Of a stretch of DNA of 28,814 nt, positions 4,308 to 28,813 are shown in pieces. The notes under the pieces are model-generated. The model saw nothing but the letters and a program-made list of their open reading frames with translations, searched no databases and was not told the origin of the DNA. The position numbers and the translations under genes are program-made. Numbering within the stretch: position 1 is the stretch's first letter; each line of letters starts with the position of its first letter. The DNA is from a virus, in the UHGV virus genome UHGV-0268820. One strand, given 5' to 3'.

Positions 4308-5176
4308 TAAATGTCGTTAGTTTCTCAGGTGGCAGGACGTCAGCATATTTACTCTGGCTAATGGAGCAAAAGCGACAGGCAGGTGAAGACGTGTATTACG
4401 TTTTCATGGATACAGGTTGTGAACATCCAATGACATATCGGTTTGTCAGGGAAGTTGTGAAGTTCTGGGATATACCGCTCACCGTATTGCAGGTTGATAT
4501 CAACCCGGAGCTTGGACAGCCAAATGGTTATACGGTATGGGAACCAAAGGATATTCAGACGCGAATGCCTGTTCTGAAGCCATTTATCGATATGGTAAAG
4601 AAATATGGCACTCCATACGTCGGCGGCGCGTTCTGCACTGACAGATTAAAACTCGTTCCCTTCACCAAATACTGTGATGACCATTTCGGGCGAGGGAATT
4701 ACACCACGTGGATTGGCATCAGAGCTGATGAACCGAAGCGGCTAAAGCCAAAGCCTGGAATCAGATATCTTGCTGAACTGTCAGACTTTGAGAAGGAAGA
4801 TATCCTCGCATGGTGGAAGCAACAACCATTCGATTTGCAAATACCGGAACATCTCGGTAACTGCATATTCTGCATTAAAAAATCAACGCAAAAAATCGGA
4901 CTTGCCTGCAAAGATGAGGAGGGATTGCAGCGTGTTTTTAATGAGGTCATCACGGGATCCCATGTGCGTGACGGACATCGGGAAACGCCAAAGGAGATTA
5001 TGTACCGAGGAAGAATGTCGCTGGACGGTATCGCGAAAATGTATTCAGAAAATGATTATCAAGCCCTGTATCAGGACATGGTACGAGCTAAAAGATTCGA
5101 TACCGGCTCTTGTTCTGAGTCATGCGAAATATTTGGAGGGCAGCTTGATTTCGACTTCGGGAGGGAAGCTGCATGA
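4304..5176 (+). CDS. ninC: NinC, phosphoadenosine phosphosulfate reductase-family protein
   Basis: 290 aa from ATG 4304, overlapping the previous stop (gcATGAtaa); [17 protein letters not shown]... (PP-loop SGGxxS motif) matches lambda NinC as recalled. The track ORF starts 18 nt upstream at 4286. Confidence 0.8.
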
Positions 5177-5346
5177 TGCGATGTTATCGGTGCGGTGAAT
5201 GCAAAGAAGATAACCGCTTCCGACCAAATCAACCTTACTGGAATCGATGGTGTCTCCGGTGTGAAAGAACACCAACAGGGGTGTTACCACTACCGCAGGA
5301 AAAGGAGGACGTGTGGCGAGACAGCGACGAAGTATCACCGACATAA
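5173..5346 (+). CDS. ninD: NinD-like small Cys-rich protein (57 aa)
   Basis: ATG 5173 overlaps the ninC stop (gcATGAtg); translation [57 protein letters not shown] has CxxC...CxxC spacing; size and position match lambda ninD. Below the ORF-track cutoff. Confidence 0.5.
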
Positions 5347-5851: not shown

Positions 5852-6020
5852 CCCATCCCAATCCCTTCAATACCAGAAAGAAAGCGTCGAGCGGGCTTTA
5901 ACGTGCGCTAACTGCGGTCAAAAGCTGCATGTGCTGGAAGTTCACGTGTGTGAGCACTGCTGCGCAGAACTGATGAGCGATCCGAATAGCTCAATGTACG
6001 AGGAAGAAGACGATGAATGA
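5844..6020 (+). CDS. ninF: NinF-like small protein (58 aa)
   Basis: [58 protein letters not shown] matches recalled lambda NinF; start overlaps the previous gene's end and the stop overlaps the next start (ATGAATGA). Confidence 0.55.
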   Translation: MLSPSQSLQYQKESVERALTCANCGQKLHVLEVHVCEHCCAELMSDPNSSMYEEEDDE

Positions 6021-6735
6021 GTTAATAAATGGCAATGCCATCAAAATGACAAGCATTGAAATCGCTGAGTTGGTGGGTAAGCGTCATGACAATGTGAAAC
6101 GTACCATCGAAACGCTGGCTAAAAATGGTGTTATCCGGCTTCCTCAAATTGAGGTTTCCGAAAGAATCAATAACTTAGGGTTCAATGTTCAGTACGAGCA
6201 TTACGTCTTCGAAGGCGAACAAGGTAAGCGAGACAGTATTGTCGTTGTTGCCCAGTTGTCGCCGGAATTCACCGCTCGCCTTGTTGACCGCTGGCGAGAG
6301 CTTGAAGAAGCTGCGGTTAATATCCCCAAAACGCTACCAGAAGCGTTGCGCCTTGCTGCTGATCTTGCTGAGCAGAAAATGCAACTGGAAAACCAGCTCG
6401 CAATTGCCGCACCTAAAGTTGAGTTTGCCGATCGAGTTGGCGAGGCCAGCGGAATTTTGATTGGAAACTTTGCAAAGGTTGTCGGTATTGGTCCAAACAA
6501 ACTGTTTGCGTGGATGCGCGATCACAAAATCCTTATTGCTTCAGGTTCCCGGCGCAATGTGCCAATGCAGGAATATATGGATCGCGGCTATTTCACAGTG
6601 AAAGAAACAGCGGTCAACACAAATCACGGAATACAGATATCGTTCACCACAAAAATCACCGGGCGTGGTCAACAGTGGCTGACCAGAAAGCTGCTCGATA
6701 ACGGAATGCTGAAAGTAACAGGGGAGGCTGCTTAA
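6013..6735 (+). CDS. phage regulatory protein, Rha-family N-terminal domain with KilAC-like C-terminal domain (antirepressor-like)
   Basis: 240 aa; N-terminus ...[24 protein letters not shown]... is typical of Rha/Bro-N-type DNA-binding domains; C-terminal half resembles AntA/KilAC antirepressor domains; translationally coupled to the flanking nin genes. Confidence 0.7.
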
Positions 6736-7543: not shown

Positions 7544-8192
7544 TGGCAGCAAATACCGAAATATTTGGGTAGTTGGCGATCTGCACGGATGCTACACGAA
7601 CCTGATGAAAAAACTGGAGACGATAGGATTCGACACCCAAAAAGACCTGCTTATCTCGGTTGGCGATTTGGTCGATCGCGGTGCAGAGAACGTCGAATGC
7701 CTGGAATTAATCACATTCCCCTGGTTCAGAGCTGTACGTGGAAACCATGAGCAAATGATGATTGATGGCTTATCAGATCGTGGAAACGTCAATCACTGGC
7801 TGCTTAATGGCGGTGACTGGTTCTTCAATCTCGATTACGACAAAGAAATTCTGGCTAAAGCTCTTGCCCATAAAGCAGATGAACTTCCGTTAATCATTGA
7901 ACTGGTGAGCAAAGGTAAAAAATATGTCATCTGCCACGCCGATTATCCTTGTGACGAATACGAGTTTGGAAAGCCAGTTGATCATCAGCAGGTAATCTGG
8001 AACCGCGAACGAATCAGCAACTCACAAGACGGGATCGTGAAAGAAATCAAAGGAGCGGACACGTTCATCTTTGGTCATACGCCAGCAGTGAAACCACTCA
8101 AGTTTGCCAACCAGATGTATATCGATACCGGCGCAGTGTTCTGCGGAAATCTCACATTGATTCAGGTACAGGGAGAAGGCGCGTGGGCATAA
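7521..8192 (+). CDS. ninI: NinI serine/threonine protein phosphatase (lambda PPase-like, calcineurin-like metallophosphatase)
   Basis: From ATG 7521: [33 protein letters not shown]...[16 protein letters not shown]...RGNHE - metallophosphatase motifs GDxHG, GDxxDRG, GNHE. The track ORF starts upstream at 7446, but the lambda-type start is MRYYEK. Confidence 0.85.
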
Positions 8193-8701
8193 GAGAACTA
8201 AACCTCACCAAAGAACAGCATGAGTGGCTGAATGGCTGGCTTGAACTGTGGGGCGCATGGGTTTATTCAGGTCGTCTGGAAAAGCGCATGAGCAGCGTAA
8301 TAGCGAAGTTCATGGAGAGCGTAGAGCCGGGAAGAGTTATGACAAGGCCAATGTGTAATGATGATGATGGAATGTTGATTTCTCAGGTCGTCGATTCCGT
8401 CATGTACATTGACAAGAAAGCCTTTGGCATCCTCCTCAGCTACTACGCTCATGGTTCATCTAAGCGAGCAATTGCATCCTACTATCACGCGACTGCAAAG
8501 CCACGCAAGATGTGTGGACGTGGTGGCGAGGGATGGAGAAAACCTTCACTGGCAACCTGTAGAAACGAAATTGACGACATCCTGAAAGCGTCGTTATTTG
8601 TTTTGTACCAACCAATGCAAAATGCTTTCAAAATGCGTAAACGTGTTGAGAAAGTTAAGCATGTTGCTGTTAAAAGCCTTGACATGCAATTAGCCATTTA
8701 G
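8183..8701 (+). CDS. late-gene antiterminator Q, QuuD/Q21-like family (not lambda-Q type)
   Basis: 172 aa from GTG 8183 (RBS GGGAGAAGG); motifs [17 protein letters not shown] and LLSYYAHG resemble the E. coli QuuD family; located directly before pR' and the lysis genes. Confidence 0.7.
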
Positions 8702-8708
8702 CCATAAT
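8679..8708 (+). promoter_or_regulatory. candidate late promoter pR' (sigma70 TTGACA-18-CATAAT) overlapping the 3' end of Q
   Basis: TTGACA at 8679-8684 and CATAAT at 8703-8708; position at the end of Q is as expected for a lambdoid pR'/qut region. Confidence 0.45.
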
Positions 8709-8718
8709 TAGAAGGTAA

Positions 8719-8763
8719 GCTGCCGTTAGTGACTCTTAAGTTGCAACGGTGGCTTTTTTATTT
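8719..8763 (+). terminator. candidate tR'-like intrinsic terminator shortly downstream of pR'
   Basis: 9-bp stem GCUGCCGUU/AACGGUGGC (two G-U pairs) with a 17-nt loop, followed by TTTTTTATTT (8754-8763). Confidence 0.45.
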
Positions 8764-8855
8764 GCACAACAGGTAAGAGCATTGAACCCGCAGACCTCGC
8801 GGAATTGGTGAAAGGTGCCGCGCAGTGCTCTTATCGTTGTGGCAGCACAACGATA
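8764..8855 (+). repeat. late-leader element copy 1 (GCACAACAGGTAAGAGCATT ... AGTGCTCTT) ending in a perfect 10-bp palindrome
   Basis: Shares a 21/22-nt head motif and the AGTGCTCTT tail motif with copy 2; a 10-bp inverted repeat TATCGTTGTG-gcag-CACAACGATA lies at 8832-8855; resembles the lambda post-tR' leader as recalled. Confidence 0.5.
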
Positions 8856-9023
8856 GTTTTCGTCAGAGTTGGCGACTTTGCGGTTTTTTAGAAACTGATC
8901 ACAAAGATAAATGCAAACGAAGAAATGTATCTGGCCGTAGCTTAACCGCTAAACACCAGTGAGGTATTCCAGTTCCTCATCAACGAATCTGGCGCACTGG
9001 CCCGGTGTGATTAATAATGGGCA

Positions 9024-9130
9024 CACAACAGGTAAGAGCATTAAAGAACTGGCAAAGAGCTTAACGGTCTGCGAAAGCATTTCTTAGTGGCACAACTGGC
9101 CGGTACAACTGAGTGCTCTTTCCGGTGTGG
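9024..9130 (+). repeat. late-leader element copy 2 (direct repeat of copy 1, about 260 bp downstream)
   Basis: CACAACAGGTAAGAGCATT at 9025-9043 and AGTGCTCTTTCCGGTGTGG at 9112-9130; head and tail are mutually complementary (GTAAGAGCA/TGCTCTT), predicting a long-range stem. Confidence 0.5.
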
Positions 9131-9585
9131 TGAATGCGCAGGCTGATGCGTTAATCAGGTGAACGAGACACCCGCCGGTCCGTGATATGGCACACCGTGC
9201 CGGTCATATCTGCCGCGGTTAGGTTTACGAGGATTTCGTAAAGCTGGTCTAGGGTGAAGCCGTGAAAGCGGAGGAAGTAAAACGAGGCGTCGGTACACGC
9301 CTATCGTCATTAAGTCGGAGTTCAGCACCGACCGCCACAACCCAAACTGAGCCGTAGCCACTGACTATCCTGAATTCATCAGTGATAGTTACGCTGCGGC
9401 CTTCTACACATGATCTTCGTGAAAGCGGGTGGCAGGAGGTTGCGCTAACAACCTCATGCCGTTTTGCCCGTGCATATCGGTCACGAACAAATCTGATTAC
9501 TAAACACAGTAGCCTGGATTTGTTCTATCAGTAATCGACCTTATTCCTAATTAAATAGAGCAAATCCCCTTATTGGGGGTAAGAC

Positions 9586-9909
9586 ATGAAGATGCCAGAA
9601 AAACATGACCTGTTAGCCGCCATTCTCGCGGCAAAGGAACAAGGCATCGGGGCAATCCTTGCGTTTGCAATGGCGTACCTTCGCGGCAGATATAATGGCG
9701 GTGCGTTTACAAAAACAGTAATCGACGCAACGATGTGCGCCATTATCGCCTGGTTCATTCGTGACCTTCTCGACTTCGCCGGACTAAGTAGCAATCTCGC
9801 TTATATAACGAGCGTGTTCATCGGCTACATCGGCACTGACTCGATTGGTTCGCTTATCAAACGCTTCGCTGCTAAAAAAGCCGGAGTAGAAGATGGTGGA
9901 AATCAATAA
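9586..9909 (+). CDS. S: holin S with dual-start motif (S107 antiholin from ATG 9586, S105 holin from ATG 9592)
   Basis: [62 protein letters not shown]... essentially identical to recalled lambda S; Met-Lys-Met dual start present. Confidence 0.9.
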
Positions 9910-22760: not shown

Positions 22761-22948
22761 CGTTTAACAGCCTGCCGGACGGGCTGTCCTACCTTCTCAA
22801 TCCGGTTGACGCCGGGTTAATTCCTTATACAGCACTTAAAGATGGCTCTGTCGATTTGTATGACATTGCTCTCTTGAATGACCATCTGGCGGTAAAAGCG
22901 GATAACCAGCGACGCATTGAGAAATGGAGAGAGGATAATGAACGCTGA
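22308..22948 (+). CDS. tail assembly chaperone, -1 frameshift-extended product (lambda G-T / Mu gp41-42 analogue)
   Basis: Slippery heptamers A_AAT_TTT / T_TTT_TTG at about 22704-22713; the -1 frame is open from there with no start codon for about 78 codons, to a TGA just inside the tape measure gene start (about 22946-22948). Confidence 0.5.
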
Positions 22949-24944
22949 AACTATTAAAGATTTCCTCGTCTCGCTTGGCTTCAGTGTGGATGATGCAGGA
23001 GCGAAAAAGTTCGGTTCTGTCCTCGCCGGTACAACTGCAAATGTCATCAAAATGGGGCTGGCTGTTGAAGGGGCTGCGCTGTCCGTGGTGGCCTTCACGG
23101 CTAAGATCGCCTCCGGCCTGGATAATCTTTACTGGGCGTCACAGCGCACCGGCGCGACGGTCCAGGGAATTCAGTCTATTGGCTATGCGGTTTCGCAGGT
23201 TGGCGGCAGTGTGGACGCTGCGCGATCTTCTCTGGAAAGCCTCTCCCGGTTTATTCGTAACAATCCCGGAGCAGAAGGCTTTCTGAATCGCCTGGGCGTA
23301 CAGACCCGTGATGCCAGCGGTAACATGCGTGACATGGCTGCTATCTTTACGGGCGTTGGACAGAAACTCAGCAGCATGCCGTATTACCGGGCTAACCAGT
23401 ATGCGCAGATGCTGGGCATTGACGAAAATACCCTGATGGCTATGCGTCGCGGAGTGGGGCAGTTCAGCGCTCAGTATTCAGAAATGGTGAAAGCGATCGG
23501 ATTTAATGCCGATCAGGCTGCCTTATCGTCAAACCGGTTTATGACCTCGCTGAAATCGCTCGGTGAAATGGCCAGGATGGCGCGGGACAAAATCGGATCG
23601 AATCTTGCGGACGGACTGGCGGGGCAGATTGATAACCTGCGCAAAAAGATAATTGAAAATTTTCCCAAAATTGAAGTCACCATCACAAAGGTCATAAAGG
23701 GGATCCTCTGGCTGGGTGAGATAGTCGGGCGGGTAGCATTTCGGATAGTCGATGGTGTCGGAGATATCATCGAGTGGTGGGGGAAACTGGATGCCGAAAC
23801 GAAAACCCTGATAGAGGTTATCGGCGGTCTGGTTGTCGCCATGCGGATACTTAACTCTACTTTCTGGATGTCACCTATAGGGCTGATTACTGGTCTGATC
23901 GTGGCTCTCGGTCTCTTGTGGGAAGACTACAAAACATGGAAAGAAGGCGGTAACAGCCTTATCGACTGGGAAAAATGGCAACCGGCAATAGATAAAGCGA
24001 AGGATGCGATCACCTGGCTTCGTGATCACCTTCTGGAACTAAAAGATGGTGTTGGCGGCTGGCAAAATGCACTGGAAATCCTCGGTACATTCATCGCGGG
24101 TGTCTGGGTATCCAGGGTTCTGGGGGCTTTCGGAAAAATATCAGGTTTACCGATCCCACCCTGGCTTAAATTGTGGGCGCTTTACGCGGGCTATATTGTT
24201 AGTGACAGAGAAAATATTGCCGATAGCGCAAAATCTTCACTGAGGTATACGAAGCGAATTATCGGCGACACGCTGGCTGCTATTGGTATAAAAACAGATA
24301 TCGGACGCAGGGATGTCAGTGAGGTCCGTGAATGGCCTGCGTGGATGGACTGGTTGCACGGGGGACCCGGTAAAGTTATCCGGCAGGGACAGAGTAACGG
24401 TGTAGTGCATGGCTCCAACGTCCAGCCCGACATCCCCGGCGGCGGCACTCTTGCTGATCGCAACAATAACCCCGGGAACATTCGCCCGGTGAGCGGTAAA
24501 GGGTTCCGGTTTTTCGAATCAGCGCTTGAGGGCTGGGAGGCGATGAAAAACCAGCTCATGCGTTACTTTACCGGGAAAACAACCGGACGGGCATTACAGA
24601 CTATTCAGGATATTGTCAGTACCTGGGCCCCGGCAGGTGATAACAACGATCCGAAAAAGTATGCACAGGATGTTGCGAAATGGATGGGAGTATCACCGAA
24701 TGCAATATTGAATCTTACAGATCCCCGGACTATGGGAGCATTGATGCAGTCGATGGCGCGCAAAGAAGGTTATTCAAACTGGAACAGCCCGCTGGCGTAT
24801 CAGGCCGCCGCTGGCAGCCTTAACCAGCAGACTGTTATAAATGTTCATGGAGTTAACAACCCTCAGGAGGCGGCTAATCTGATTGCTGACAAGCAGGGGG
24901 CTGTAAATGCCAGGGCGGTACAGCAATTGAAAGGGCCTGCGTGA
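22938..24944 (+). CDS. tail tape measure protein
   Basis: 668 aa from ATG 22938 (strong RBS GGAGAGAGG; the track start 22917 lacks an RBS); alpha-helical N-terminal half, hydrophobic central segments (LIEVIGGLVVAMRILNSTFWMSPIGLITGLIVALGLLW), globular C-terminal domain. Confidence 0.8.
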   Translation: MNAETIKDFLVSLGFSVDDAGAKKFGSVLAGTTANVIKMGLAVEGAALSVVAFTAKIASGLDNLYWASQRTGATVQGIQSIGYAVSQVGGSVDAARSSLESLSRFIRNNPGAEGFLNRLGVQTRDASGNMRDMAAIFTGVGQKLSSMPYYRANQYAQMLGIDENTLMAMRRGVGQFSAQYSEMVKAIGFNADQAALSSNRFMTSLKSLGEMARMARDKIGSNLADGLAGQIDNLRKKIIENFPKIEVTITKVIKGILWLGEIVGRVAFRIVDGVGDIIEWWGKLDAETKTLIEVIGGLVVAMRILNSTFWMSPIGLITGLIVALGLLWEDYKTWKEGGNSLIDWEKWQPAIDKAKDAITWLRDHLLELKDGVGGWQNALEILGTFIAGVWVSRVLGAFGKISGLPIPPWLKLWALYAGYIVSDRENIADSAKSSLRYTKRIIGDTLAAIGIKTDIGRRDVSEVREWPAWMDWLHGGPGKVIRQGQSNGVVHGSNVQPDIPGGGTLADRNNNPGNIRPVSGKGFRFFESALEGWEAMKNQLMRYFTGKTTGRALQTIQDIVSTWAPAGDNNDPKKYAQDVAKWMGVSPNAILNLTDPRTMGALMQSMARKEGYSNWNSPLAYQAAAGSLNQQTVINVHGVNNPQEAANLIADKQGAVNARAVQQLKGPA

Positions 24945-25902: not shown

Positions 25903-26937
25903 ATGTCGAAAAACTGGATGCGTCACTTTGAATTATTGCTTGTTGATGATAAGGGCGACGGGATAAAAATTTCTGAGCTTAAAGTCACTTTCAATATTCA
26001 GAAAATGCCTGCGACCATATTTAATGGATTCGTTGGAAATTTTAAGGTTTATAACCTGTCTCCTACCACTCAGAACCGGATTATGCAGAAGGAGTTTTCG
26101 CGTATACAGGTTATTGCCGGATACAAGGGGCAACCGGATGCAGCAGGTAATTATCCTGATGAAAACGTTGGTATGATATTCAATGGAGATATCCGTTTTA
26201 CTGTCACTGGTAAAGATAATGCCACAGACAGTTGGATCATGTTGCAGTGTATTGACAGCTGGGAAGGCCACCTGAACGCAAGTGTGAAAACCACAGTGGC
26301 AGCTGGCTGGAAGTACAGAGATCTTTTCAGTCTGGGTATGAAATCATTCGAACCATATGGCATCGAATCCGGCGCAGTTCCTGACATGCCTGAAACGGTA
26401 TTTCCCCGGGGTCGCGTTGTTTATCAAAACACATCAAGGTTGATGAATCATATCGCAGGGCAGTGTAAGGCTAACTGGTGGTATGAAAATAATCTGGTAA
26501 ATATTGTTCCTGAAGATAAATATATTGGTGTTGCTACGGTGTTGAATGCTAACACCGGGCTTATCGGTATGCCACAGCAGACGATGGGAGCTGGCGTAAA
26601 TGTCAGATGTCTGATTAATCCAAATATTAAGCTCGGTGGGCTTATTCGTCTGGATCAGGCATCTGTATACCGTGCCTCTTTGAGTAATGACCAGGTAGCG
26701 AAATCGCCAGCACGACTGGATGAGTCTGAAAGCGACGGTAATCTCTACGTTAACGGTCTGCCAGGCATGTCACAGCCTGCCAGCATTAATACTGACGGTG
26801 ATTACATTGTGGGCAGCATTGATTATACTGGCGACACCCGAGGGCAGGCGTGGTATATGGACCTGCTTTGCCTGGCTAAAGGTGGCAAAGAACTATTGGC
26901 AAAAGGCACTTTGGACAAAGGCGGAGATGTAGAGTGA
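25903..26937 (+). CDS. putative baseplate hub/tail protein
   Basis: 344 aa; located between the tape measure-distal genes and the spike gene; no motif-level assignment possible. Confidence 0.5.
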   Translation: MSKNWMRHFELLLVDDKGDGIKISELKVTFNIQKMPATIFNGFVGNFKVYNLSPTTQNRIMQKEFSRIQVIAGYKGQPDAAGNYPDENVGMIFNGDIRFTVTGKDNATDSWIMLQCIDSWEGHLNASVKTTVAAGWKYRDLFSLGMKSFEPYGIESGAVPDMPETVFPRGRVVYQNTSRLMNHIAGQCKANWWYENNLVNIVPEDKYIGVATVLNANTGLIGMPQQTMGAGVNVRCLINPNIKLGGLIRLDQASVYRASLSNDQVAKSPARLDESESDGNLYVNGLPGMSQPASINTDGDYIVGSIDYTGDTRGQAWYMDLLCLAKGGKELLAKGTLDKGGDVE

Positions 26938-27269
26938 AAAAAGTATTTTTTTGTTTATTCTTGGCCCTGCCGTTAACAGTTTCGGCGGCAACGCAGTGCG
27001 GACCATTCCGCTTTGATGCTGGTAATGATGGCCTCATGCACATCAATGGTCAAAAGCCAGAAACACAAAAAATGACCTTTTTGAAACAAAAAGACGATTT
27101 CGATAATGTCATGATGCAATGGATGTTACCTGATCCTAATACTGGACGTTGGTTAGGTATGGACTACATCAAACGAAACAAAAAAGCGATCCTCAACGTT
27201 GAAGTTATCCGCAAAAATATGGACGAGCCTCGGGAGTTCTGGACGTATGATTGCCGGAAGGTGAAGTGA
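26934..27269 (+). CDS. small secreted protein with Sec signal peptide (moron cargo, unknown function)
   Basis: GTG start overlapping the previous stop (GTGA); N-terminus MKKVFFCLFLALPLTVSAATQ has an n-h-c signal peptide with an AxA-like cleavage site; two Cys in the mature part; coding sequence AT-rich relative to the flanking tail genes. Confidence 0.55.
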   Translation: MKKVFFCLFLALPLTVSAATQCGPFRFDAGNDGLMHINGQKPETQKMTFLKQKDDFDNVMMQWMLPDPNTGRWLGMDYIKRNKKAILNVEVIRKNMDEPREFWTYDCRKVK

Positions 27270-27344
27270 ATTACATTGGCGTCCAGCTTCTGCAGAACAG
27301 CATGGATGCACCGAAAATCATCGGTTCCTTTCCATGCAAAAAGA

Positions 27345-27372
27345 TTGTTGATTAATCACTCGTAATTATAAT
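27345..27372 (+). promoter_or_regulatory. sigma70-like promoter (TTGTTG-16-TATAAT) internal to the tail gene cluster, driving the small membrane-protein gene
   Basis: TTGTTG at 27345-27350 and TATAAT at 27367-27372 in a 139-bp AT-rich intergenic region; AAGGA RBS before ATG 27409. Confidence 0.45.
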
Positions 27373-27408
27373 GTGATACTTCTACTTTCACGATAAGGAA
27401 TTTGTCAC

Positions 27409-27648
27409 ATGTTCGGATTTGATAAATTAATAACTCCAAAAATCATCAACGTTCTGTATGGCATCACAATGTTACTTCTGGTTGTTGCCGCCATTATAAC
27501 GTTTGTTAATGGGAAGGCTGCTGGCGCTTTAGTGCTTTTGTTATGTGCTGTATTTTGCCGAATATTCTTTGAGTGCATCATGGTTTCATTTAAAAACAAT
27601 GAGTATCTTCGCCGAATAGCTGAAGCGTTAGAAGCAAACAAGCAGTAA
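27409..27648 (+). CDS. small inner-membrane protein with two predicted TM helices (moron cargo, unknown function)
   Basis: 79 aa; two hydrophobic stretches (VLYGITMLLLVVAAIITFV and ALVLLLCAVFCRIFFECIMV); own promoter and terminator; AT-rich. Confidence 0.6.
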   Translation: MFGFDKLITPKIINVLYGITMLLLVVAAIITFVNGKAAGALVLLLCAVFCRIFFECIMVSFKNNEYLRRIAEALEANKQ

Positions 27649-27664
27649 TGAAACTTCAATAATG

Positions 27665-27689
27665 AACCCGCCACCCGGCGGGTTTTTTA
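27665..27689 (+). terminator. Rho-independent terminator closing the moron
   Basis: Stem AACCCGCC/GGCGGGTT with loop ACCC, followed by TTTTTT (27683-27688). Confidence 0.7.
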
Positions 27690-27707
27690 CTTTCTGGAGA
27701 CATATGA

Positions 27708-28460
27708 ATGCCCGTTTCTTTAAGCGCTCAACTTGGTAGCAAAGAACAGGCCGATGTAAGACTTGCTGGCTCTGTCATGTCGGCGCTGCGTGTTTCTATG
27801 CCCGGCATCGTCCAGTCATTTGATCCGGACACGGTAACAGTGGTTGTTCAACCTGCGATTAAAGGCTATGAGCCGGACTCAAATGGAATCAACCAGTCGA
27901 CGACATTACCCCTGCTGGTGGATGTACCAGTGGTATTCCCGCGCGGCGGAGGCTGTACGTTGACTTTTCCGGTAAAAGCCGGGGATGAGTGTCTTGTCGT
28001 TTTTGCCGATCGTTGTATTGATTTCTGGTGGCAGAGTGGCGGGATACAGGAGCCGGTCGATGACAGAATGCATGATTTATCGGATGCGTTTTGTATTGTC
28101 GGTCCCCAGTCGCAGGCGAGGAAGATTAGCGGTATTAATACCAGTGCCACACAGTTGCGTAGTGACGACGGCAGCACCTATTTTGAGCTTAATCCTGATA
28201 CCAGGAAAATTAAAATTGTCGCTCCGGGTGGTCTTGATGTGGTTGCCCCTCTGGCTGATTTTTCTGAGAAAGTAACCATTCATGGCCTGTTAACCTGGAT
28301 GGGGGGCATGGTGGGGTCTGTGGTTTCTGGTGTGGCTTCAAAAATCACTGGTGCTGTTGAGTTTTTGGGTAGCGTGAAGGCTAACGGCAAGCCAATCGAT
28401 GATACGCACACTCATGGTGGTGTTCAGCGCGGTGGAAGCAGTACCGACGGGGTAAACTGA
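27708..28460 (+). CDS. baseplate central spike/assembly protein (gpV / Gp138 N-terminal-domain-like)
   Basis: 250 aa; N-terminal region ...GIVQSFDPDTVTVVVQPAIKGY...LPLLVDVPVVFPRGGGCTLTFPVKAGDECLVVFADRCIDFWW resembles OB-fold spike N-domains; Gly-rich C-terminus; GGAGA RBS. Confidence 0.55.
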   Translation: MPVSLSAQLGSKEQADVRLAGSVMSALRVSMPGIVQSFDPDTVTVVVQPAIKGYEPDSNGINQSTTLPLLVDVPVVFPRGGGCTLTFPVKAGDECLVVFADRCIDFWWQSGGIQEPVDDRMHDLSDAFCIVGPQSQARKISGINTSATQLRSDDGSTYFELNPDTRKIKIVAPGGLDVVAPLADFSEKVTIHGLLTWMGGMVGSVVSGVASKITGAVEFLGSVKANGKPIDDTHTHGGVQRGGSSTDGVN

Positions 28461-28813
28461 TGCGATACAGACGTGAAGACGCCGATGGCGATTACACCTT
28501 TGGCAGCGGTGATGACACCTGGCTGATTAACTCGCCTGAGGCCGTAGCGCAGGCTGTGAAAACGCGATTCGAATTGTGGTATGGGCAATGGTTTCTTGAT
28601 ACCACAGAGGGAACACCGTGGATCCAGTCCGTGCTGGGCAGGCAAAAACCAGAAACTTACAACCTGGCGATCCGTAAGCGCATCCTCGAAACGCAGGGCG
28701 TTAAATCAATCCTCTCTTTCAATACGACAGTAGATACCACGACCCGACGTGTCATGTTTTCCGCTGAAATCGACACTCTTTATGGAATAACGACTGTTAC
28801 ATCGGAGGCGTAA
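28460..28813 (+). CDS. putative baseplate protein (117 aa)
   Basis: ATGA overlap with the spike gene stop; position in the baseplate cluster; ends at TAA 28811-28813, one base before the window end. Confidence 0.5.
   Translation: MRYRREDADGDYTFGSGDDTWLINSPEAVAQAVKTRFELWYGQWFLDTTEGTPWIQSVLGRQKPETYNLAIRKRILETQGVKSILSFNTTVDTTTRRVMFSAEIDTLYGITTVTSEA

Follow-up and report, generated by a model that had tools for sequence, protein, structure and literature searches.

The viral genome UHGV-0268820 is a stretch of 28,814 nucleotides, called the window in this report. The subject is the 757 bp at positions 26934–27690, which lie between the baseplate hub gene and the central spike gene of a contractile-tail module and hold two small open reading frames (ORFs), ORF1 and ORF2. 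An earlier note, written from the letters alone, had taken the pair to be an acquired, AT-rich accessory unit (a moron) made of a secreted protein and a membrane protein with its own promoter and terminator. The features of the locus and its two flanks are as follows (aa, amino acids; nt, nucleotides):

25903–26937, plus strand: baseplate hub gene, 344 aa, left backbone flank (Pfam E217_GP41, 1.4e-7; phrog_196 baseplate hub, 8.4e-80).
26801–26829, plus strand: promoter-like element in the 3' coding region of the hub gene (ATTACA, 17 nt, TATACT), ~105 nt upstream of ORF1.
26934–27269, plus strand: ORF1, predicted exported protein of 111 aa (phrog_3443; 'STY1065/STY2022 family'), with its signal peptide at 26934–26987.
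27270–27355, plus strand: 3' relic of a second, divergent ORF1 allele, encoding a C-terminus that ends LQNSMDAPKIIGSFPCKKIVD*; a recombination scar.
27345–27372, plus strand: putative sigma-70 promoter of ORF2, TTGTTG (27345–27350), 16 nt, TATAAT (27367–27372); Shine-Dalgarno sequence AAGGA at 27395–27399.
27409–27648, plus strand: ORF2, DUF4282 two-helix protein of 79 aa, predicted in the inner membrane (PF14110, 1.2e-10; phrog_12129, 8e-48).
27664–27695, plus strand: intrinsic terminator, right boundary of the cargo slot, GAACCCGCC-ACCC-GGCGGGTTT and a T-run, just upstream of the spike ribosome-binding site.
27708–28460, plus strand: central spike gene, 250 aa, right backbone flank (Pfam spike N-terminal domain, 1.3e-44; GpV Apex motif).

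ORF1 starts at a GTG codon that overlaps the stop codon of the hub gene (GTGA), with GGAG 9 nt upstream. Its N-terminus, MKKVFFCLFLALPLTVSA followed by ATQC, displays the n-, h-, and AXA regions of a Sec signal peptide, and inspection together with hydropathy divides it into MKK, VFFCLFLALPLT, and VSA before A. The signal peptide proposed for this 111-aa product in the earlier note is borne out. The family consensus keeps the signal-peptide pattern, and all members carry two invariant cysteines, C22 and C107. In the AlphaFold2 (AF2) model, ORF1 is an eight-strand up-and-down barrel (predicted local distance difference test score, pLDDT, 87) that begins at residue 19; residues 1–20 have a pLDDT of 56–64, and the first and last barrel strands carry C22 and C107. 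Export is predicted from the sequence, and mature ORF1 should be a periplasmic β-barrel of ~93 aa after cleavage, in which a C22–C107 disulfide probably staples the first strand to the last.

RefSeq names ORF1 a 'STY1065/STY2022 family phage-derived protein'. The family is small, with 57 representatives among 1.84 billion proteins in an exhaustive HMMER search, and its members with a source name come from Enterobacterales. A profile search of 5.8 billion proteins gave 329 matches; the 120 of these 329 that were listed are unnamed or called 'hypothetical' or 'secreted protein', and are from Enterobacterales. The few long matches in the exhaustive search are repetitive proteins with meaningless Pfam noise, Pfam gave nothing consistent on all 47 family members, and a profile comparison with PDB sequences for remote homology returned noise only. 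Foldseek found no match of the model at E <=1e-3 in PDB or BFVD. Avidin and streptavidin-like eight-strand up-and-down barrels have a fold like that of the model but share only 2–9% sequence identity with ORF1, and the likeness is best taken as a generic small-barrel resemblance and not as membership.

ORF2 matches PF14110 with 42.2 bits against a gathering cutoff of 27, with residues 2–71 aligned to positions 2–85 of the 86 in the model. The earlier note had held that neither protein could be assigned to a family; ORF2 belongs to DUF4282 (phrog_12129) and ORF1 to phrog_3443. The 87 homologues of ORF2, at 45–99% identity, show a coherent conservation pattern, and all but one have a precomputed PF14110 match. 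Two hydrophobic helices are visible in the 79-aa sequence and AF2 gives a helical hairpin (helices 10–33 and 37–78; pLDDT 88), in agreement with the two transmembrane (TM) segments that had been predicted. The topology is probably N-in/C-in, and the charge distribution fits this. In the alignment, the N-terminal F-x-x-x-ITP is invariant, and the first helix and the turn are variable. The second helix contains an invariant R51/E55 pair and extends into a conserved cytoplasmic helix, FKNNEYLRRIAE. A Pfam scan of ORF2 at E up to 0.1 gave only DUF4282 and a sub-threshold YbhQ match, with neither Imm_superinfect nor membership of the HK97 gp15/YebO-like proteins, and the NCBIfam matches were noise. 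For both ORF1 and ORF2, PADLOC-DB 2.0 contained no family at E up to 1.

A minus-strand ORF of 89 aa at 27405–27674 overlaps all of ORF2 and was rejected as a gene candidate. That it is the real gene and the DUF4282 frame fortuitous is scarcely credible: the minus-strand ORF is longer (89–102 aa) and is preferred by a greedy longest-ORF picker, but the plus-strand product matches DUF4282 above the gathering score and phrog_12129 from end to end, has 87 plus-strand homologues and a confident hairpin model, and RefSeq annotates the plus strand. Being longer than ORF2, this antisense ORF misleads longest-ORF gene picking.

The two genes differ in base composition. ORF2, with a GC content of 0.375, is clearly AT-rich against the hub (0.451) and spike (0.513) genes, and GC dips to 0.36 at 27300–27599. 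ORF1, at 0.426, is only marginally below the hub gene, so that the much higher AT content formerly ascribed to both genes holds for ORF2 and hardly for ORF1.

The hub-to-spike DNA was searched against 5,426 complete E. coli genomes, of which 304 have related modules and 28 have at least 80% query coverage. The set of related loci numbers 89, including 80 from IMG/VR that were retrieved with the hub protein. Eight E. coli representatives were inspected, and they share a constant backbone with differing inserts: Phd/Doc, a hypothetical protein with YafO, DUF2335, two-gene hypothetical pairs, a 170-aa protein, a reverse-strand 151-aa protein, and DUF4282. The backbone order is best read as hub, small exported protein, cargo slot, intrinsic terminator, and spike. 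Among the 80 IMG/VR loci, the distance from hub match to spike match ranges from 316 to 3313 bp, and 55 ORF clusters fall in the interval. Across the 89 loci the slot is either empty or occupied by more than 20 different gene sets; hub, ORF1, terminator, and spike follow each other without cargo in L034, L071, L080, L082, and L083. Among the cargoes that could be identified are Arc-like repressors with Bro-N/Ant antirepressors, KilA-N, and HicAB; Pfam matched Arc, Bro-N/Ant, and KilA-N, among others. Membrane proteins of zinc-ribbon/tRNA_anti-like and of Mu-F-like C-terminal type also occur, as do several other proteins with a signal peptide or membrane segments. Judged by these sequences, the cargo consists mostly of toxin-antitoxin pairs, Arc/Ant regulators, and small envelope proteins, and the presence of Arc/Ant pairs suggests that the slot carries lysogeny-related modules. 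None of 10 other cargo proteins matched PADLOC (12 tested with ORF1 and ORF2). On this comparison, the interval from ORF1 to spike is a variable cargo hotspot in SEN34-like (Brunovirus-type) prophages. Comparison with related prophages, as the earlier note had proposed, thus supports a variable cargo site for ORF2, but ORF1 is conserved and syntenic.

Two other cargoes of the slot recur. A two-gene cargo of ~250 aa and ~135 aa (clusters C3 and C6) is found at L005 3225–4384 and in L014, L028, L048, and L073. One HAT-repeat below the gathering cutoff was all that Pfam gave for it, PADLOC gave no match, and its layout looks like that of a toxin-antitoxin or defence pair. A 188-aa protein with an N-terminal HEAGH motif (cluster C9, metallopeptidase-like) occurs in L052, L055, L057, L059, L062, and L063 and has no Pfam or PADLOC match.

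The left edge of the slot is marked by a scar. Positions 27281–27355 are the last 75 nt of a different ORF1 allele, and match the C-terminus of the ORF1 alleles of L004, L005, L007, and SEN34. L007 matches the segment 27281–27699 at 98.6% identity. There and in L006, an intact ORF1 closes with the relic bases, 54 bp before DUF4282; L010 and L014 agree with the window as far as 27342/27343, beyond which their cargo is a different one. Since the relic bases end an intact ORF1 in the first two loci and the other two diverge at 27342/27343, the 3' end of ORF1 is read as the recombination junction. The cargo-specific DNA spans approximately 27343–27660, and the segment 27343–27663 has a GC content of 0.352.

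The right edge is the terminator, whose hairpin (27664–27685) contains 6 G-C pairs among its 9 bp and leads into a T-run. Hairpin and T-run precede the spike gene in 81 of 87 related loci, whatever the cargo and also where the slot is empty; the exceptions are L029 (one mismatch), L046, L047, L049, and L065 (minus-strand cargo), and L072. The stem varies by compensatory pairs (CCCGCC/GGCGGG, CCCAGC/GCTGGG, GCCCAC/GTGGGC, CCTCGC/GCGAGG, and GCCACC/GGTGGC), and the loop varies freely. The strong terminator attributed to ORF2 is therefore present but is not its own: from its distribution and covariation, it appears as a backbone element common to all cargoes and not as part of the ORF2 cassette. 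Because the phage encodes a Q antiterminator, late transcription should pass the 27664 terminator, and Q-dependent read-through is expected from lambdoid biology. Its retention even in empty slots suggests that something upstream is transcribed when Q is absent.

DUF4282 occupies the slot in 15 of the 89 related loci, and the protein is 100% identical at the amino-acid level in all 15. This identical protein stands beside differing hub types (99% or 47%), ORF1 alleles (99%, 60–65%, or 25–26%), and spike alleles (100%, 89%, 70%, and 57%), which points to recent spread by recombination. Homologues at 45–75% identity are cargo at other positions in unrelated prophages that lack ORF1. In Klebsiella siphovirus-type prophages the homologue directly follows the tape-measure gene; a Pantoea prophage has it downstream of the holin-lysozyme-Rz cassette, and in another strain it is flanked by insertion sequence (IS) elements. 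In Edwardsiella phage GF-2 (L098), the DUF4282 start abuts the tape-measure stop, and an Arc/Ant module follows. In the Klebsiella, Pantoea, and GF-2 copies, a GC hairpin with a T-run comes immediately after the stop codon, and motifs similar to the ORF2 promoter lie upstream, with the -35 starting 59–64 nt before the ATG. These motifs and hairpins back a promoter-gene-terminator reading better than the window sequence does by itself, and DUF4282 is, as far as its contexts indicate, a roving unit of this kind. ORF2 is patchily present, has a terminator downstream, and diverges in base composition; by these marks it would rank as a genuine moron. ORF1, present in ~90% of the loci, is not patchy.

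In GF-2, the tape-measure and Dit-like genes are separated by DUF4282 and a divergent Arc / Arc-Ant (immI-like) module (L098 4001–6316). This insertion indicates a second cargo site in the same type of tail module.

An ORF1 homologue directly follows the hub gene in ~90% of the 89 related loci, cargo-free loci included. Its start coincides with the hub stop or lies a few bases away in all the E. coli relatives inspected and in 72 of the 80 IMG/VR loci, and the synteny behind the hub holds down to 47–58% hub identity. ORF1 homologues are also found in the isolated phages SEN34, Mulock, and GZ7, and in YP3. The earlier note had treated ORF1 as cargo and had itself named conserved synteny across relatives as evidence to the contrary; such synteny is what the relatives display, and ORF1 is better described, on these comparisons, as a conserved accessory gene of the tail module than as variable cargo. 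In SEN34, the ORF1 homologue is annotated short (SEN34_20, 78 aa); the full 113-aa exported protein corresponds to L096 3471–3812 and starts at a TTG codon 108 nt upstream of the annotated start.

In eight loci (L032, L033, L039, L041, L042, L064, L069, and L075; about 5020–5280 in most), the place of ORF1 is taken by an unrelated exported protein of 80–84 aa (cluster C4, no Pfam match) that is rich in Thr, Gly, and Cys and has TNTGTTY repeats. In L073, a 233-aa lipoprotein stands there together with a 3' relic of ORF1. ORF1 alleles also swap independently of the hub: at a hub identity of at least 93%, ORF1 is 94–99% identical, 60–67% identical, or absent. They diverge ~5x faster than the hub (mean distance 0.16 vs 0.03). 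In pairwise-distance correlations, which are underpowered at 21 loci, ORF1 is linked to the adjacent hub alone (rho 0.67), with rho <=0.17 against the tape-measure C-terminus, Dit-like protein, plug, spike, and sheath initiator.

These data bear on the reading that the tail module uses ORF1 in morphogenesis or in the lytic cycle, for instance as a periplasmic lysis or release factor or a protector of progeny or the infected cell, and that ORF1 is expressed late only and has no part in lysogenic conversion. Its near-universal synteny after the hub, its start overlapping the hub stop, and its presence in isolated phages are what such a protein would show. On the other hand, an exported protein cannot join cytoplasmic tail assembly, unrelated exported proteins take its place in 8–9 loci, and its alleles diverge several times faster than the hub; moreover, the conserved terminator closes the unit even with an empty slot, and there is promoter-like nucleotide constraint upstream. 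This reading is considered unlikely. A structural role in particular is unlikely because ORF1 is, by prediction, exported and is swapped for unrelated exported proteins: it shares tail-module synteny with a baseplate component but is neither cytoplasmic nor irreplaceable. Export, replacement, and hub-independent allele exchange with faster divergence argue for an accessory gene. Phage E217 has a gene at the same place, gp42, between hub gp41 and spike gp43, and the E217 structure paper makes no mention of it. The analogy is of no help for ORF1, since gp42 (178 aa) is non-exported and unrelated.

The same comparisons address the proposal that ORF1 and ORF2 were acquired together as one two-gene moron or system and work together in exclusion or defence. 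In its favour, the genes are same-strand neighbours without an intervening terminator, both products would be envelope-bound, and a transcript from the putative hub-internal promoter would span both. However, ORF1 occurs with every cargo type and with none, the identical DUF4282 stands beside three ORF1 allele classes, no ORF1 accompanies DUF4282 in the Klebsiella, Pantoea, and GF-2 phages, and the relic ORF1 3' end between the genes indicates that recombination joined them. With no PADLOC match in addition, the single accessory system of the earlier note is not upheld, and joint acquisition and action are very improbable.

Upstream of ORF1, the element at 26801–26829 is the sole plus-strand promoter-like match called by the scanner. 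It spans the hub codons for DYIVGSIDYT and is found at the same position in nearly all hub alleles. Because this amino-acid motif is itself conserved, synonymous sites were examined. Among the third positions of 195 conserved degenerate codons in 82 hub alleles, 5 of the 12 lowest entropies fall within these 9 codons, a clustering with a hypergeometric estimate of ~1e-4. Position 26829, the final T of the -10, is T in 74 of 74 alleles, even at Thr/His/Asn changes; 26802 is T in 76 of 77, and 26805 (C) and 26826 (T) are each conserved in 76 of 82. The third positions of nearby invariant Asp, Thr, and Gly codons of the hub vary freely. This nucleotide-level constraint is consistent with a sigma-70 promoter.

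The case for the promoter ascribed to ORF2 is weaker than the earlier note had it. TTGTTG-16-TATAAT is present, with a perfect -10, but only 3 of the 6 bases of the -35 agree with the consensus, the scanner passed the motif over, and the number of promoter-like matches in the region is at chance level (6 found vs 5.6 expected).

Taken together, the 757 bp are best explained, with a probability of about 0.6, as two independent accessory genes in the late tail operon of a SEN34-like lambdoid myovirus prophage, with an effect on the cell envelope as the likeliest outcome. A promoter-gene cassette of ~320 bp (about 27343–27660) carrying ORF2 would have entered the slot through recombination at the 3' end of ORF1. 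In the lytic cycle, the Q-antiterminated late transcript would cover both genes. In a lysogen, ORF1 would be transcribed from the putative hub-internal promoter and ORF2 probably from its own, and ORF1 and the cargo may thus form a prophage-expressed unit. The conserved terminator would stop the lysogen transcripts before the spike gene and so insulate the spike and distal baseplate genes. Both proteins would then exert an envelope-level effect that benefits the lysogen, for which superinfection exclusion at the periplasmic or inner-membrane step of DNA entry is the leading candidate and our best guess. Exclusion leads because lom/bor/cor, HK97 gp15, and T4 Imm/Sp provide analogies and because DUF4282 is repeatedly found by tape-measure, hub, and spike genes.

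Several observations weigh against this explanation. Near-universal retention of ORF1 would equally suit an assembly or lysis-related role, and no target for ORF1 is indicated, as its distances do not co-vary with spike or the tape-measure C-terminus. Both promoters are consensus-like, the hub-internal element matching at 9 of 12 positions overall, and the synonymous-site constraint could reflect another DNA or RNA element. In DUF4282, conservation is concentrated on the cytoplasmic N- and C-terminal surfaces and on R51/E55 in TM2 and leaves out the periplasmic turn, a pattern that does not particularly favour a periplasmic block of incoming phage. Abutting the tape-measure stop, as DUF4282 does in GF-2, is compatible with a late, lytic-cycle role. 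Finally, neither protein matches PADLOC or the known exclusion families.

Because the conservation points to cytoplasmic or intramembrane partners, a role of DUF4282 in host physiology, abortive infection, or lysis timing is nearly as likely as exclusion. In the corresponding alternative, ORF2 is a host-physiology modulator, an abortive-infection or toxin-like effector, or a lysis-timing (holin/antiholin-like) protein. The invariant Arg/Glu in TM2 and the conserved amphipathic cytoplasmic C-terminus suggest such a partner, one homologue lies right after the lysis cassette and the GF-2 copy is coupled to the late tape-measure gene, and the other cargoes of the slot are mostly toxin-antitoxin and regulatory genes. 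In contrast, ORF2 has no similarity to holins, PADLOC models, or known toxins, and 3 of 4 contexts of the gene adjoin tape-measure, hub, or spike genes, as is reportedly also the case for HK97 gp15. This alternative is possible but tentative, and two accessory genes with exclusion as the leading function remain the preferred explanation.

Known prophage genes offer parallels. HK97 gp15 is reportedly a small inner-membrane moron protein in the tail operon of a lambdoid phage, encoded next to tape-measure or tail-tip genes, expressed from the prophage, and said to exclude at DNA entry. Like it, ORF2 is a small protein, predicted in the inner membrane, whose gene is inserted in the tail-gene operon of a lambdoid prophage. 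However, gp15 is a YebO-like single-pass protein and ORF2 a two-helix DUF4282 protein, with no sequence relationship; ORF2 lies in the hub-spike interval of a myovirus tail. The lambda genes lom and bor, and cor of phi80, N15, and HK022, encode exported, outer-membrane, or lipoprotein products among the tail genes and are of the moron type: they have their own promoter and terminator, atypical composition, and patchy distribution, and Q antitermination allows late transcripts to run through them. In contrast, ORF1 is predicted to be soluble and periplasmic, and is kept almost universally in its phage group; Lom, Bor, and Cor are not homologous to ORF1 or ORF2. In T4, Imm is a two-TM inner-membrane protein of ~83 aa, and Sp, a small envelope protein, reportedly inhibits the tail lysozyme. 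ORF2 and ORF1, as predicted, make a comparable pair of membrane hairpin and periplasm-facing protein, whereas here the Imm_superinfect family gave no match, the two genes are mutually independent, and the phages are temperate while T4 is virulent. The immI region of P22 comprises arc, mnt, and ant. Arc-like repressor and Bro-N/Ant pairs are cargo of the same slot in other loci and stand beside DUF4282 in GF-2, but do not occur in the window. A fixed position between conserved genes at which unrelated cargoes interchange is also seen in the P2/P4 hotspots (Rousset et al. 2022) and the Tai systems at moron loci (PMC11364771); the present slot differs in lying between hub/ORF1 and spike of SEN34-like phages, with no PADLOC match among the 12 proteins. 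HK97 gp15 is also cited in PMC11364771 (its reference 15, Cumby et al. 2012, J Bacteriol 194:5012), and for the classical lambdoid morons there is the review 'The moron comes of age' (PMC3594210).

In the literature searched, no description of the hub/ORF1-spike slot of SEN34-like phages and no mention of DUF4282 was found; the SEN34 and Salmonella-prophage-cargo papers do not discuss the slot, and 'STY1065' and 'STY2022' matched astronomy papers alone. A bolder interpretation is that the hub-spike interval is a prophage-expressed island not described before, built of a promoter within the hub gene, a constant small exported protein, an open cargo slot, and a conserved terminator, with ORF1 as a new periplasmic exclusion or lysogenic-conversion family and DUF4282 as a new inner-membrane exclusion family that hinders tape-measure- or spike-dependent genome entry. 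This is regarded as rather doubtful; if true, it would give the widespread DUF4282 its first function. As the evidence stands, the locus is a well-behaved example of the moron paradigm, with ordinary prophage add-on genes and no new kind of system; of the by-products, the architecture of the hotspot and the signal of an embedded promoter hold the most interest. If the proposed explanation holds, the loci provide a natural-variation map of a cargo hotspot in a baseplate operon with sharp edges (the ORF1 3' end on the left and the covarying terminator on the right), and two small, easily cloned envelope proteins as candidates for a first functional assignment of DUF4282 and the orphan ORF1 family. 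A promoter inside the coding sequence of a structural gene would, if real, be a way for prophages to express accessory genes within silent late operons.

The window belongs to an E. coli prophage with lambdoid regulation and a contractile tail. Fourteen complete E. coli genomes contain the region of ORF1 and ORF2 at 100% identity, and 21 cover 80% or more of it; in strain E9 the prophage adjoins pphA/yebW. The closest isolated relatives are Salmonella phage SEN34 (Brunovirus) and Klebsiella phages Mulock and GZ7, together with induced Klebsiella prophages. SEN34 combines lambda-like regulation with myovirus morphology (PMC5261728). Upstream in the window are genes for NinG, a Ser/Thr phosphatase, a Q-family antiterminator, a holin, and Rz. 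The tail module runs from the tape measure through a Dit-like protein, a Pam3-gp18-like plug, the E217-gp41-like hub, ORF1, ORF2, and the spike to the sheath initiator. Two further features of this prophage are:

8183–8701, plus strand: Q-family antiterminator gene (PF06530 Phage_antitermQ, 1.1e-25).
22917–24944: tape-measure gene of the tail module.

The gene after spike (28460–28813) has no Pfam match at E up to 0.1, and RefSeq gives it and its homologues conflicting names: 'contractile injection system sheath initiator', 'thioredoxin domain-containing protein', and 'hypothetical protein'. A 'thioredoxin domain' cargo of the slot was rejected, as this is the RefSeq name of the post-spike gene that is elsewhere called sheath initiator. 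Between the Q antiterminator and the holin, ~880 bp (8701–9586) contain no ORF of at least 90 aa and no tRNA; lambdoid phages classically have their late promoter and cargo here. In the nin-like region, a Rha / KilAC-domain antirepressor gene is located at 6013–6735, upstream of NinG.

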